Positions 12,471 through 58,412 of a DNA stretch of 64,000 nucleotides are shown here, piece by piece. The position numbers were made by a program, and so were the translations under genes. Where the stretch lies: the NCBI GenBank assembly GCA_025336685.1, contig GCA_025336685.1_4717.1; one strand, 5' to 3'. Source of the stretch: Escherichia coli (GTDB lineage: Bacteria > Pseudomonadota > Gammaproteobacteria > Enterobacterales > Enterobacteriaceae). How positions within the stretch are numbered: position 1 is the first letter of the stretch; each line of letters starts with the position of its first letter. The notes beneath the pieces were generated by a model. The model ran no database searches, was not told the origin of the DNA, and saw nothing but the letters and a program-made list of their open reading frames with translations.

Positions 12471-12544
12471 GTTTTATTCCTTAGTAGTCCTAGTAGTAGT
12501 ATTGAGGAATTTCACCTCATTAGATAGTCTATTTTGGTAATGTT

Positions 12545-12844
12545 TTACTGAAACAGGACATTAAATTCGACAAGATACCCATCGGATCTATCACCACGAT
12601 AACGGTTGCAGAAAACGCCGAATTTCATCAAGAACTCACATAACTCTTCGGCTTTGTATAACGGAATACGATTTTCGTCGAACAGAGGGCACTTATGGCT
12701 AACCCGCTCCGACGAATCAACGCAACACAAATAAAGAAGGAACCGAACGATAGCTCGGTTCTTAGTGAAGCTCTCGAATTCACCTGCGGTTCTGAACTCA
12801 TCGAGGAGCTTTGTCGTTTTCTTCAATCGTTCACGATCAAGCAT
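12545..12844 (-). CDS. hypothetical protein
   Basis: 99-aa ORF, RBS GAGG. Confidence 0.45.
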   Translation of the reverse strand: MLDRERLKKTTKLLDEFRTAGEFESFTKNRAIVRFLLYLCCVDSSERVSHKCPLFDENRIPLYKAEELCEFLMKFGVFCNRYRGDRSDGYLVEFNVLFQ

Positions 12845-12898: not shown

Positions 12899-12907
12899 AA
12901 TATGCTA

Positions 12908-21088: not shown

Positions 21089-21136
21089 CGCACGTACCTC
21101 TTTGAATCGGTAGATAGATTAATAGATATTGATTAC

Positions 21137-46257: not shown

Positions 46258-47669
46258 CTTCAGTTTAATTTGGTCGAACGTATTCCAATTTCAATCCATG
46301 CCAATCACCGCCTTTACTAATAGCGGTACTTATCGTAGTCGGATGCACTTTATGTTCTTCAGCAAGGGCGAATCTATCAGGATAGACTTTATGTGTACCA
46401 TCCTCAAACACCACCTTTACTGGGAACCTTTGTAATCCACCAGTTTTTGGTCTAGGCTCTTTAGGAATATATTTACATTCGTTCACATCGCCAGGATAAT
46501 TCCTTGTCCACCATGCTTTCCAACCGTTTCTGGAAAACATCTTATCTCCATGACATAAGCTATGACTTAATGTCGCATAGCTCACTCCCACCATTGTTGC
46601 CGCCATTACGGTACTTTCCATGTGATACTTGTCTCCATCGGGCGATATTAAAACCAACCCGCCGTAAATAACATACGACTTACCGGCATCTTCGGATGTG
46701 AAACCGACAAATTCCATTCCGTGGGTAGCCGCATCGTAATATTTCATCAACGGCCATTGTCGTGTAGTACGGAACCATTTTGAAATCTGGGTGTGTGGGA
46801 TACCGTAACACTTAGCCGCATCGCGCATACTGTAATGTTCGGTTATCTCGCCAGTTCTCAAATCCTTTATCCATACTGTTTTAGCTTTCCAGTTCAAGCC
46901 CGTACGATAGGCATGGTACGTATTTTGGGATTGACTCGTCCATTCAAGATTATCCAAGCGGTTGTTATCTTTAACTCCGTCAAGATGGTTACCTACTAAC
47001 ATTGATCCCTCAGGCAGCATAGGTTTTTCACGAAAGGTGGATAAAACAACATGATGAGCTGCTATATCTCTACCTTCATGTCTGACCCTTACATATCCTA
47101 ATACGTTAGTTTTTCCTACTTCCTCTCCAGTATAGGCATCTATAATGACACCCTCCACAGAAGCGGCAAGTCCGGGATAATCTTTACAATGGTAAAATCC
47201 TGGGAATTTTGTCTCTCTAAGTTTCATCTTCTCTCCGCTATCGGCCAACAGAGAGAAAACGTTCCTCGGAGGCCGACGTTTTCAAATTAAACTACGTTAT
47301 CGACTATATCTTCATCCTCATTGCGAGGAGTCTCCCGTTTGGGTCTGTGTTTAACAGAGCCTACTCTACTCGACATCGCGTCTTTCGATAGTCTGTGAGC
47401 ACACATCTTAACGAACATTCGTGGACTCCTAAACAGGTGAACATTCTTGTTAAGATGCTTCGCTGCGGGTTATTCCCGTCCTACCTCTTTTACCATACCC
47501 AGTTCATTACGCTGGCCCTCATCTATGTCGCCACGATGAGTTGGTGTGTAGTCCGATTACAGAAACTTCCCGTCAATTAGAGAGTTTTAACTATGTTCCT
47601 GTTACCAGAAACCCGACTCCGATGATATCAATAAATCAACGTAAGTTATTGATTTAATTGAAGAAACTG
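46258..47669 (-). other. group I intron (1412 nt) in the RNAP beta-prime-like gene
   Basis: 5' splice after U (GCCGACUU|CAG); candidate IGS GAGUCGG pairs with exon CCGACUU including a U.G wobble; P AAUUGACGGGAAG, Q AAUAACCCGCAGC, R GCUCACAGACUAUCGAAAG, S GAAGAUAUAGUCGA all in the first ~400 nt; 3' end ...CUGAAG with terminal G. Confidence 0.8.
46265..47227 (-). CDS. HNH homing endonuclease encoded in the 3' part of the intron
   Basis: HHVVLSTFREKPMLPEGSMLVGNHLDGVKDNNRLDNLEW (HNH core); track start 47248 is TTG, ATG 47227 has GGAGAG RBS. Confidence 0.8.
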   Translation of the reverse strand: MKLRETKFPGFYHCKDYPGLAASVEGVIIDAYTGEEVGKTNVLGYVRVRHEGRDIAAHHVVLSTFREKPMLPEGSMLVGNHLDGVKDNNRLDNLEWTSQSQNTYHAYRTGLNWKAKTVWIKDLRTGEITEHYSMRDAAKCYGIPHTQISKWFRTTRQWPLMKYYDAATHGMEFVGFTSEDAGKSYVIYGGLVLISPDGDKYHMESTVMAATMVGVSYATLSHSLCHGDKMFSRNGWKAWWTRNYPGDVNECKYIPKEPRPKTGGLQRFPVKVVFEDGTHKVYPDRFALAEEHKVHPTTISTAISKGGDWHGLKLEYVRPN

Positions 47670-51010: not shown

Positions 51011-51167
51011 AATATTGGTGTAACCGCATTGAACGATATAAACCCCTAGGCGAACGCTGCCGAGAAGCAACATTCTTTCTACATATAATCAGGATATGTC
51101 TGTAAACTTTTACTTCTCTTATTGAGAGTAATGTCATATCCGTTTACCATCTTCTTACGGAGTTCGT

Positions 51168-52328: not shown

Positions 52329-54482
52329 TTATTCTGCGGTTTCTTGCTTCGGTAAATAACTTGCTGCGATGTCTTGGGCCAACAATGTATTGTTTTTATT
52401 CGAGATGAAAATACCGTAACTTTCCATTAACGCATAATACGAACGAACGAGCGTAGAGATCAGTCGACGAATATCCATACCTTGAATAAAGATATCAGGA
52501 AGCCCGGAGGCTTCGATCACCGGTAATGGTATCGTTAAGTTGCTTATCGTTTTCTTATCGTTACGTACAATCCAATCACGGAAACGTTGTTGTAACCCTT
52601 TATCCTCCCATGAATCAATCCAATCATTAAGAAGCGTTTTGTTCTTCGTCGCCAGCGGTACACGAACCCCAACATAAGGCGGTTCAGAGCAATGGCCGTA
52701 CGATTGAGCAAACACCTCTTCCCACATATCGTAAGACTGTTTCGTTACTGCAACATGTGGTTTCACTTTAACACGTGTTAAGAAATCGGGGTCACCTCGT
52801 TTCATTGACTCAACGATTTCGTTTTCTAACGAGATGATATCATCAAGAACCAATCGAATACTGATCTTCTCGTTACGTAACAGCTTATCCATGATACCAC
52901 ACATCATCCGCTCAACACGTTGGACGATCATCTTCGGCGCTGATGCGTCGCGCATAACAGGGCCTTTCAATTCCAGCTTCGGTGGATTGATAGGAACCCC
53001 TTCACGCATGGTCATGTATCCGTAATAGTTTTTACCCATCGAGGTTAACGACAGGATTAAGAACATATATTCGTTCTTCATCTCCATTACGTACATATGC
53101 TCTTTCGCTACACCGATATTACCAGAACACATCGCCATCAGATGAACCGTAATCTGCGTAACCAGATAGATAAGCGTGTTTGCTAAGCGCGTCGAAATTG
53201 GATTGATCTCCATATTTCCAAATCGCCACTGAACCCACTCCTGGCAGGTAAACACCGTCGAGTCGGTATCAGACAACACACCCACTTCACGGATTGCCGA
53301 CGGAAAAGCATAAACGCCTGCCGGTTGGTTCTCGGTACGCCATAACGCCTTAATTAAATCAGCGTAGCTTTGGATGCGTTGCAGCATTAATTTTGTCGTT
53401 GCTGCAGTAAGACGATAACCGAGTTCATTTCCTTTTTCTAGCGCTACGTAAATCGCTTCCCCGTTCAAGAACTCCGTGCATTGTGCTGTAATCCAAGCTA
53501 CCGTGTTGTTATCCATGGAAGCAATAATGGCTTTAGCCTCTTCCATCGTTTCAACAGGTTCGGATGCCAGTTCACATAACGAGTCAAGAAAATCTCGAAC
53601 AAATTCAGGATTAAGCTCACGTAACGAGTACAGGTTATTGCTGTACATGTAGCAGGCACGTTCCAACGGCGTTAAACCGGTAATTAGCTCCCGGATGGTC
53701 AGCTCTTTCTCTGGGTCGAAAGTATACCGATGTAAGCATTTCGATACGTTAGCCCAAACCTCTTCCGGCGTAGGGTAATGCAGTTTGTATTTTACCATTA
53801 CCTGCTCAATGGCTTTACGATCGCTGTTACGGACAATACTCACGATGTTTTCAATTGCGATATCACAATCGTAATAATGGAAATTACCCGCAAGGAAGCG
53901 TTCGTTGTTCGCATTGGCTGAACCTGAAGCACAGCGACATGTTGTCGTTAGACTCGGATGCGCGATCGGATTGTAAAATGGGTTAAACTTGGACGCTTGG
54001 GTTCCTGACAAGCTGTTGTTATCTAACTTGGTGTTGGTTTGTCGTTTATCGTGTAACTCAGCTTCGTCTTTACGTCCGTGAGCTTGCGCTATCGACATTT
54101 GTTTCTTCTGTTTCTTACGCAACTTACCGTTTTCAACCGCAAAGTCGCTTAGCACACTGGAACGTGTTTCACGTGGATAACAGTTAGCCCATACCGGCGT
54201 GATAATTAAATTATTTTCTTTAATATCGTTGAAGTATTGGCTGAACTTGATGACTTCTTTTTCTCGGTTTCCTTCAGTACGCTGTGTTAGTACAAGGCAG
54301 TCGGGATCAACCATCCCGTATTTTCCACCAGGACTAACCGTATCAAGAACAAACTGCAACGCTTCCTGCTGAGAAATCCCACGCATGCGCATTAAGAACA
54401 GGGTATAATCCTGTACCGCTTCTTTGGTCATATCCAACGTACGGCCATATCCGTTTTCATCGTAAAAGAACGGATTTTCCAT
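52329..54482 (-). CDS. hypothetical 717-aa protein
   Basis: Long ORF, GGAGG RBS; no confident motif. Confidence 0.55.
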   Translation of the reverse strand: MENPFFYDENGYGRTLDMTKEAVQDYTLFLMRMRGISQQEALQFVLDTVSPGGKYGMVDPDCLVLTQRTEGNREKEVIKFSQYFNDIKENNLIITPVWANCYPRETRSSVLSDFAVENGKLRKKQKKQMSIAQAHGRKDEAELHDKRQTNTKLDNNSLSGTQASKFNPFYNPIAHPSLTTTCRCASGSANANNERFLAGNFHYYDCDIAIENIVSIVRNSDRKAIEQVMVKYKLHYPTPEEVWANVSKCLHRYTFDPEKELTIRELITGLTPLERACYMYSNNLYSLRELNPEFVRDFLDSLCELASEPVETMEEAKAIIASMDNNTVAWITAQCTEFLNGEAIYVALEKGNELGYRLTAATTKLMLQRIQSYADLIKALWRTENQPAGVYAFPSAIREVGVLSDTDSTVFTCQEWVQWRFGNMEINPISTRLANTLIYLVTQITVHLMAMCSGNIGVAKEHMYVMEMKNEYMFLILSLTSMGKNYYGYMTMREGVPINPPKLELKGPVMRDASAPKMIVQRVERMMCGIMDKLLRNEKISIRLVLDDIISLENEIVESMKRGDPDFLTRVKVKPHVAVTKQSYDMWEEVFAQSYGHCSEPPYVGVRVPLATKNKTLLNDWIDSWEDKGLQQRFRDWIVRNDKKTISNLTIPLPVIEASGLPDIFIQGMDIRRLISTLVRSYYALMESYGIFISNKNNTLLAQDIAASYLPKQETAE

Positions 54483-54556
54483 AAATCCTCCAAAAGTTAT
54501 TTAGTCTGTCTACATCATCTCGTATATCTGTTAAAAAAGAAGGACGGCATAAAAAG

Positions 54557-54584
54557 AACCGATCCAGCCGAAGCCAGATCGGTT
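54557..54584 (-). terminator. hairpin AACCGATC ... GATCGGTT followed on the minus strand by CUUUUUAUGCCG
   Basis: 8-bp stem, U-rich tail. Confidence 0.55.
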
Positions 54585-54638
54585 TAAAGGATAATAACTG
54601 ACTGAAAGATATCGATGATGTTCGTGAAACAAGATCTT

Positions 54639-54687
54639 CTCTCGTGTTACAATGATGCCAGATCAGAGGGAGGTTGTAACACGAGAG
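54639..54687. repeat. perfect 14-bp inverted repeat CTCTCGTGTTACAA / TTGTAACACGAGAG with 21-nt spacer
   Basis: Lies in the 300-nt intergenic region between the 54781 stop and the 54482 start. Confidence 0.6.
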
Positions 54688-54780
54688 ATGGTTCGCCAAA
54701 GAAGGAATAAAAAACACGAACCTATCTTATTTCACTGATGGCACTAACCACTCAAAATATATAGTACCGTATGTAAAAGT

Positions 54781-55194
54781 TTACTGATTAATCAAGTCGT
54801 TAGCAACAATCTTGGTGTAACCCGCCTGATTAAGAATTTGATTAATTTTTGTCATGTCGGTCGCATCCTCGATAACGATGCTAGGTTTATAGATCAGCGT
54901 CTTGGTAACGACGATCGTGCTCTCCTTAATCCAAGGAATCCCTAAAATCACATACTCACCATCAGCTGTGATGACCTCGACGTAATTGTACTTCGTCGGA
55001 TCGTTCGGTACACTCGACGGGAGCCGGGAATAAATCTGTTGGTGAATGGCGTCCACATCGCGGCCGTTACGTACGGCGGTACGATAATTGTACACCGCGC
55101 TAATTTCTACTCCGTTGAAGTTAACCCCAAGTTCTGGGGCGTACACATCAAAACTCACAACAGAGCCAATCTTTTCTAAATCAGAAGCTGGCAT
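54781..55194 (-). CDS. hypothetical protein
   Basis: 137-aa ORF, RBS AAGGA. Confidence 0.45.
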   Translation of the reverse strand: MPASDLEKIGSVVSFDVYAPELGVNFNGVEISAVYNYRTAVRNGRDVDAIHQQIYSRLPSSVPNDPTKYNYVEVITADGEYVILGIPWIKESTIVVTKTLIYKPSIVIEDATDMTKINQILNQAGYTKIVANDLINQ

Positions 55195-58390: not shown

Positions 58391-58412
58391 GCTTTCTCCT
58401 ACACGGCATAAA

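Follow-up and report, generated by a model that had tools for sequence, protein, structure and literature searches.

A candidate structured non-coding RNA between the SH3-domain and DNA polymerase genes of a Goslar-like jumbo phage

The window, i.e. the whole 64-kb stretch of DNA that was analyzed, can be assigned from its sequence to a Goslar-like chimallivirus (nucleus-forming jumbo phage, Chimalliviridae), the region being 95.9% identical to Escherichia phage Goslar. The local genes all lie on the minus strand, and the gap under study separates the gene for a small SH3-fold protein from the one for a divergent family-B DNA polymerase, whose product shares 99% identity with the Goslar DNA polymerase (Table 1). 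Most of the 80 related loci that were retrieved also have the SH3-domain gene 5' of the polymerase gene; the chimallin gene is located just downstream of the polymerase region, and the PhuZ tubulin gene upstream. The distance between the SH3-domain and polymerase genes ranged from 3 to about 1900 nt among the 80 chimallivirus polymerase loci (L014-L090), and the space from the SH3-domain gene to the terminator was, across the family, almost empty, occupied by an extra gene of 200-240 aa, or filled with 100-400 nt of structured non-coding sequence. In some lineages (e.g. L070, L080, L083, L085) this distance was 400-630 nt, with no ORF of at least 60 aa and strong predicted structure (z to -8.8), and such ORF-free structured gaps beside the polymerase gene may be further uncharacterized non-coding RNAs. 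The window also contains a group I intron (47281-47660, minus strand; Rfam RF00028, 50.3 bits, E = 8e-10), which prompted the idea of an intron relic in the gap; nothing was found in favor of it, and both flanking ORFs are complete.

Table 1. Genes and sequence features at the gap upstream of the DNA polymerase gene, ordered along the minus strand.
Feature	Coordinates	Strand	Size, score or basis
137-aa gene, SH3-fold domain accompanying phage DNA polymerases	54781..55194	-	Pfam PF20287, E = 1.3e-36
Palindromic box GTAAACTTTTAC (GTAA-N4-TTAC)	54773..54784	-	12 bp; overlaps the stop codon of the upstream gene
Intergenic gap	54483..54780		298 nt; between the 137-aa and 717-aa genes
Initiator-like TTTTGAG	54751..54757	-	predicted start G54753
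Three-way-junction RNA (predicted)	54624..54735	-	MFE -46.1 kcal/mol, z = -7.74
P1	54735..54724 with 54635..54624	-	12 bp
P2	54722..54716 with 54696..54690	-	7 bp; 19-nt U/C-rich loop 54715..54697
P3 (inverted repeat)	54688..54674 with 54652..54638	-	15 bp; 21-nt loop 54673..54653, CCUCCCUCUGAUCUGGCAUCA
Linker from junction to terminator	54585..54623	-	39 nt, unpaired in the fold of the 209-nt transcript
Intrinsic terminator, hairpin 54584..54557 and tail CUUUUUAUGCCGU	54544..54584	-	terminator scan and Goslar annotation
Conserved block, T-rich TTCTTTTTTA 54541..54532 and ATGATGTAG 54518..54510	54510..54541	-	after the terminator
Polymerase RBS GGAGG and ATG	54491..54487 and 54482..54480	-	direct sequence reading
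717-aa gene, divergent family-B DNA polymerase	52329..54482	-	Pfam PF20286, E = 1.7e-203

An earlier sequence-only reading of this DNA had drawn attention to a perfect 14-bp inverted repeat in the gap. The repeat is real and one base pair longer, with arms of 15 nt that are 100% complementary across a 21-nt spacer, and the rarity by chance that had been ascribed to so long an arm was borne out: perfect 15-bp repeats with a spacer of 3-60 nt appeared in 0 of 200 dinucleotide-preserving shuffles, and 14-bp ones in 1.5% of them. Within the window it is the sole case of perfect arms this long separated by a short spacer. The search beyond the locus that had been proposed as a check found the arm to be unique, with no second occurrence elsewhere in the 64-kb window, and a repeat family or mobile element was rejected on that account. 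The motif reported for the spacer, GAGGGAGG, is indeed present on the plus strand (54666-54673), although strand had been left out of consideration; since the gap is flanked by minus-strand genes on either side, the spacer in the gene-sense RNA reads CCUCCCUC, which resembles an anti-Shine-Dalgarno sequence and not a ribosome-binding site. Coding capacity was also considered for the gap: its four ORFs (28-86 aa) are all broken in close relatives by indels that are not multiples of three or by loss of the start codon, a plus-strand mini-ORF behind GAGGGAGG also loses its start codon, and a coding gap was discarded.

Compared with shuffled sequence, the whole gap is more strongly structured on the minus strand (z = -6.1) than on the plus strand (z = -4.4). 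In the minus-strand RNA the inverted repeat forms stem P3 of a three-way junction (Table 1), the minimum free energy structure representing 41% of the ensemble when the junction was folded alone (about 112-116 nt), and RNAalifold returned the same three-way junction as consensus. Searches against Rfam 15 gave no match to the gap at the gathering score (best E = 1.1 at a permissive threshold), nor any in 18 related loci, and by these searches the junction fold is absent from Rfam. Other kinds of RNA element were also considered. ARAGORN detected no tRNA or tmRNA in the window, which removed a tRNA-like element from the candidates. A riboswitch was rejected because no mutually exclusive terminator and antiterminator pairing could be formed: blocking the 3' arm of the terminator left only a 6-bp alternative helix and an unchanged junction. 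A pairing between the P3 loop and the 3' arm of the terminator, permitted by an 8-nt repeat, was dropped after two loop substitutions proved uninformative. As a separate observation, the P2 5' arm and loop (54698-54726) form a 72% direct repeat of 54536-54564 (terminator 3' arm, tail and T-rich block), with the pattern GGTTC..TTTTTAT..CCTTCTTT, which may go back to an ancient duplication of the terminator module or be a chance likeness in T-rich sequence.

In order to compare the gap among relatives, nine distinct Goslar-like variants were collected from viral and metagenome collections; complete E. coli genomes and plasmids held no further ones. The sequence-only reading had made its proposal dependent on conservation in related phages, and the fold is kept in the nine variants, with paired cells amounting to 100% for P1, 100% for P2 and 91% for P3. 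Four of the seven P2 pairs vary, with pairing kept in every case (a single GC to AU change, UG to CG in three sequences, and the wobbles GC to GU and UA to UG). The repeat itself is perfect in three variants, while the remaining six have lost one A in the 3' arm, leaving a bulged U; P3 pairing survives a wobble, this bulge and, in the variant L093, matched deletions on the two sides of the stem, by which 11 bp without interruption are restored. Three variant sequences folded singly gave the same junction (z = -5.2 to -5.5). Moreover, the new G-U pairs correspond to A-C mismatches on the opposite strand, so that the wobbles pair only on the minus-strand transcript, and the constraint acts on the gene-sense RNA and not on the duplex DNA. 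Both C/U-rich loops were nearly invariant in the nine variants, and their cores (UUCCUUCUUU and CCUCCCUCUGAUCU) invariant. Formal covariation was weak as a consequence of the high similarity of the nine variants: a single compensatory pair was seen, and the shuffle control was non-significant. The small structured RNA, one of the options put forward in the sequence-only reading, is thus the one favored, the repeat being a stem of a very stable three-way junction maintained through substitutions of the RNA type.

Rates were compared with L093, in which the third codon positions of the flanking genes are ~70% identical: differences affected 2 of 44 positions in the box block, 17 of 114 in the junction and 1 of 41 in the terminator block. 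By these counts, change across the entire gap is slower than at synonymous sites, and the fold is conserved under selection. L093 also carries a 19-nt insertion in the linker between junction and terminator, suggesting that the spacing of these two elements is not critical. Beyond the Goslar-like variants, two lineages with polymerases 64% and 58% identical (L008 and L009, respectively) share the gene order, a gap of 303-312 nt, the same box and the same terminator; the two flanking blocks align, and the middle of the gap is of unrelated sequence and is also strongly structured (z about -4). When searched with a covariance model of the junction, the remainder of the window, L008, L009 and ~60 further polymerase loci of chimalliviruses gave no credible homologue, and by this criterion the junction is recognizable only within Goslar-like phages.

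At the upstream edge of the gap, the palindromic GTAA-N4-TTAC box is one of three such sites in the window (1.1 expected). All three (12537-12548, 51102-51113 and 54773-54784) are placed at the upstream edge of a gap, in gene sense, and two of them share bases with the stop codon (CAGTAA) of the gene before. The motif (A/T)TG(A/T)AG follows the box after 18-20 nt in 7/7 aligned instances, the arrangement of box and initiator precedes both the chimallin gene and the polymerase leader in three lineages, and the chimallin-side copy of L009 shares 19 identical bases with the polymerase-side copy of the window. In the nine Goslar-like variants the initiator block is invariant. Middle promoters of phiKZ have been described as AAanTTACc centered at about -24, and the non-virion RNA polymerase of that phage initiates at the G of TATG (Yakunina 2015, PMC4666361). 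From the likeness to these promoters we infer a promoter here, with a start at G54753, the GTAA-N4-TTAC box being its putative upstream promoter or activator element. As in the phiKZ middle promoter, the last C of the TTAC box lies 18-20 nt before (T/A)TG (in AACTTTTAC, its C is 20 nt before G54753); unlike it, the box is palindromic and has a spacer of N4 instead of N2, that is, two extra bases. RNAfold predicted a hairpin across the box block which is not kept in relatives, as would be expected of promoter DNA. Sigma-70 promoters were dismissed, their matches being at chance level in a phage family that does not use the host polymerase. The palindromic shape of the box suggests a dimeric activator, and the phiKZ AAanTTACc may be half of a similar palindrome. 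In addition, TTCACGGCTATATTAC-like sequences were noticed in four gaps (minus strand, near 21130, 39190, 44465 and 50990); they resemble the AT-rich early (virion RNA polymerase) promoter of phiKZ-like phages, and the region upstream of chimallin has one of these sites plus a GTAA-N4-TTAC box.

At the other side of the junction, the terminator-like hairpin mentioned in the sequence-only reading (54557..54584) proved to be a minus-strand intrinsic terminator with 12 pairs, a cUUCGg loop and a T-run, annotated as a terminator in Goslar and invariant in the nine variants. It stands about 200 nt beyond the predicted start and precedes the polymerase ATG by 62 nt. The terminator motif of phiKZ has been published as BCCYCCCCHWWDGGGRRGGBYTTATKYYGT (Putzeys 2024, PMC10914365). 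The tail TTATGCCGT fits the YTTATKYYGT end of that motif, with TTTATGCCGT at 54553..54544 directly after the hairpin, and the window has six copies of TTTATGCC (1.8 expected), all of them directly following a hairpin; taken together, tail and recurrence identify the element as the standard intrinsic terminator of the family. Its stem is the unusual part, since in place of the CCYCCCC...GGGRRGG of the motif, which other terminators of the window carry, it consists of AACCGATCTGGC/GCTGGATCGGTT (AACCGAUCUGGC/GCUGGAUCGGUU, closed by the UUCG loop). In about a dozen lineages with polymerase identities of only 33-37%, a strong hairpin, often with UUCG, precedes the polymerase start by 65-85 nt, usually with a tail like TTATGCCGT or a close variant of it. 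This family-wide maintenance of a terminator beside the polymerase gene suggests that insulating or gating polymerase transcription is important.

Throughout the window, GC-rich hairpins, often with CCCTCCC/GGGAGGG stems, followed by (T)TTATG (the phiKZ-type motif) occur at least 12 times, on the minus strand at 58410, 45323, 31491, 30623, 24955, 19312, 12865 and 11266, and on the plus strand at 12901, 23420, 24993 and 34551; the pairs 12865/12901 and 24955/24993 resemble bidirectional terminators. The TATG that follows the terminator was also considered as a late promoter, and the published terminator motif (PMC10914365) explains it better, a double role being possible. As the terminator tail contains TATG, the core of the phiKZ late promoter, termination and re-initiation could be coupled.

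Between the terminator and the polymerase ribosome-binding site lies a second conserved block. Its T-rich part, TTCTTTTTTA, is common to all three lineages of the Goslar clade. ATGATGTAG stands about 31 nt before the ATG in the window, and the same sequence or close variants of it (ATCATGTAG, ATGGTGTAG) are placed about 30 nt before the ATG in phages whose polymerases are ~35% identical, the distant lineages with an element of this type being L021, L022, L029, L032, L036 and L074. The element resembles the TATGTAG initiator upstream of chimallin, and the block probably serves the polymerase gene itself as promoter or initiator; alternatively, it may belong to the 5'UTR, possibly as an operator. 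The conservation of ATGATGTAG is unusually deep for non-coding sequence; as RNA it would read as a two-codon mini-ORF (AUG AUG UAG). With regard to the repeat, its description as part of the untranslated region of the 717-aa gene holds only loosely, given that a canonical terminator and this deeply conserved, promoter-like element separate the two, and the repeat is therefore probably carried on a separate short transcript.

The explanation that we consider the most probable, with somewhat better than even confidence, is that the repeat is P3 of a non-coding RNA of ~200 nt, running from promoter to terminator, of the kind described in phiKZ and 201phi2-1. The GTAA-N4-TTAC box and the initiator TG 20 nt downstream would start minus-strand transcription at G54753, the junction and then the 39-nt linker would be transcribed in gene sense, and the unit would end at the chimallivirus intrinsic terminator with its TTATGCCGT tail. 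Transcription from the box, or incoming from the upstream operon, would be brought to an end by this terminator, setting free a stable, structured RNA of ~200 nt, while the polymerase gene would be expressed from the conserved element after the terminator, by read-through, or both. No transcript map of Goslar was found in the literature searched. The stems tolerate compensated changes and the cores of the C/U-rich loops are invariant, and in our view the loops would accordingly be the working surface and the junction the scaffold. Together with the tolerated 19-nt insertion, stem drift and loop invariance suggest a modular RNA with the loops as its active parts, and make a riboswitch-like switch unlikely. 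The loops would pair with purine-rich (Shine-Dalgarno-like) RNA or bind a protein; the search for targets of the two loops in the window yielded none beyond chance.

An attenuator or antitermination leader, in which the junction, alone (as in HK022 put) or with a phage protein (as in lambda nut, or with the polymerase as autoregulator), sets read-through into the polymerase gene, seems to us unlikely as the explanation of the locus. It would account for the conservation across the family of a terminator in the 5' region of the polymerase gene, and the two stem-loops with one unpaired base between them, preceded by a start site and followed by a terminator, recall put RNA. Of the 42 phiKZ terminators located in 5'UTRs, 34 have two strict modes, giving either a short RNA or read-through (PMC10914365), and antitermination was suspected by the authors of the 201phi2-1 study (PMC11512511). 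However, a search for antiterminator helices involving the arms of the terminator found none (the best candidate has 6 bp, about 1 kcal/mol), the 19-nt insertion of L093 argues against tight coupling, and the window has no second copy of the junction. The deeply conserved promoter-like element after the terminator also weighs against such a leader, since with it the polymerase gene need not depend on read-through.

We regard as improbable a passive role, in which the gap would have no promoter, and junction and terminator would be the 3' end of the upstream operon mRNA with no function of their own other than as stabilizer against exonucleases or as double-strand-specific (RNase III-type) processing site. 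Processing sites of the RNase III type are found between genes in T7-type phages, and P1 and P3, if stacked, would give a helix of about 27 bp. The box overlaps the stop codon and is not preceded by a terminator, so that upstream transcripts must run through the junction, as this reading expects. Nevertheless, it leaves unexplained both the conservation of box and initiator (in three lineages, and shared with the region upstream of chimallin) and the invariance of the loops over drifting stems, and elsewhere in the window a terminator hairpin alone suffices. Finally, a palindrome acting as DNA, be it the operator of a dimeric protein (the protein binding site raised in the sequence-only reading), a cruciform or a piece of a replication origin next to the polymerase gene, can be dismissed as highly improbable: a perfect 15-bp repeat far beyond chance, adjoining replication genes, would suit it, but the palindrome is perfect in only 3/9 close variants (the others having a 1-nt deletion in one arm), the substitutions give G-U pairs that pair only in the minus-strand RNA and are A-C mismatches on the other strand, the repeat is one part of an RNA fold that also includes P1 and P2, a spacer of 21 nt would be unusual in an operator, and there is no turn in GC skew here.

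If the short structured RNA exists, a further and rather doubtful step would be to see in it a working regulator of the phage and not a by-product, acting in trans as an anti-Shine-Dalgarno RNA or in cis as an antiterminator. In trans, the RNA would leave the phage nucleus, and its C/U-rich loops (CCUCCCUC, UUCCUUCUUU) may then pair with ribosome-binding sites on mRNAs of the host or the phage. The equivalent RNA of L008 carries CCUCCUUA, which we take to be identical to the 3' tail of 16S rRNA. In cis, the junction RNA may make the phage's own RNA polymerase ignore the family-wide terminator before the DNA polymerase gene. With either form, if true, a nucleus-forming phage would for the first time have a regulatory RNA whose mechanism is defined. 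Among nucleus-forming jumbo phages, Goslar serves as the E. coli model, and a candidate RNA with predicted ends, fold and conserved loops is now at hand, which could be knocked down with the published Goslar tools (antisense oligomers, dCas13d). In addition, three signals can be proposed for annotating the transcription units of the clade, namely GTAA-N4-TTAC with its initiator, a hairpin with TTATGCCGT, and the polymerase-proximal ATGATGTAG.

Among known systems, phages T4 and RB69 have an RNA hairpin ahead of their DNA polymerase gene, the translational operator of gp43, which overlaps the ribosome-binding site; unlike it, the repeat studied here is placed 147-201 nt upstream of the GGAGG, with a terminator in between. 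The put sites of HK022 and nut sites of lambda are stem-loops downstream of a promoter and upstream of a terminator that act on the host RNA polymerase. The stem-loops of the junction are likewise located between a promoter-like box and a terminator, a likeness that does not imply homology; unlike put and nut, the junction has a single copy in the window, and chimalliviruses use their own divergent polymerases. The closest parallel is offered by the short RNAs of other members of the same family. For phiKZ, 17 candidates were mapped, two of them confirmed by northern blot and most of the 17 giving either a short RNA or read-through (PMC10914365), and 11 such short RNAs were mapped in 201phi2-1 (Poppeliers 2024, PMC11512511). 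In the available text of these papers (PMC10914365; PMC11512511), no such RNA is placed upstream of the DNA polymerase gene. Unlike those RNAs, mapped by sequencing and northern blot, the Goslar-like RNA is a predicted one, likened to them by architecture and not by sequence or structure homology. That architecture comprises a putative promoter (the recurrent conserved box with its initiator and predicted start), an intrinsic terminator less than 250 nt after that start and upstream of a gene, and, as in the phiKZ and 201phi2-1 RNAs, a structured sequence conserved within the genus and with no conserved ORF preceded by a ribosome-binding site.
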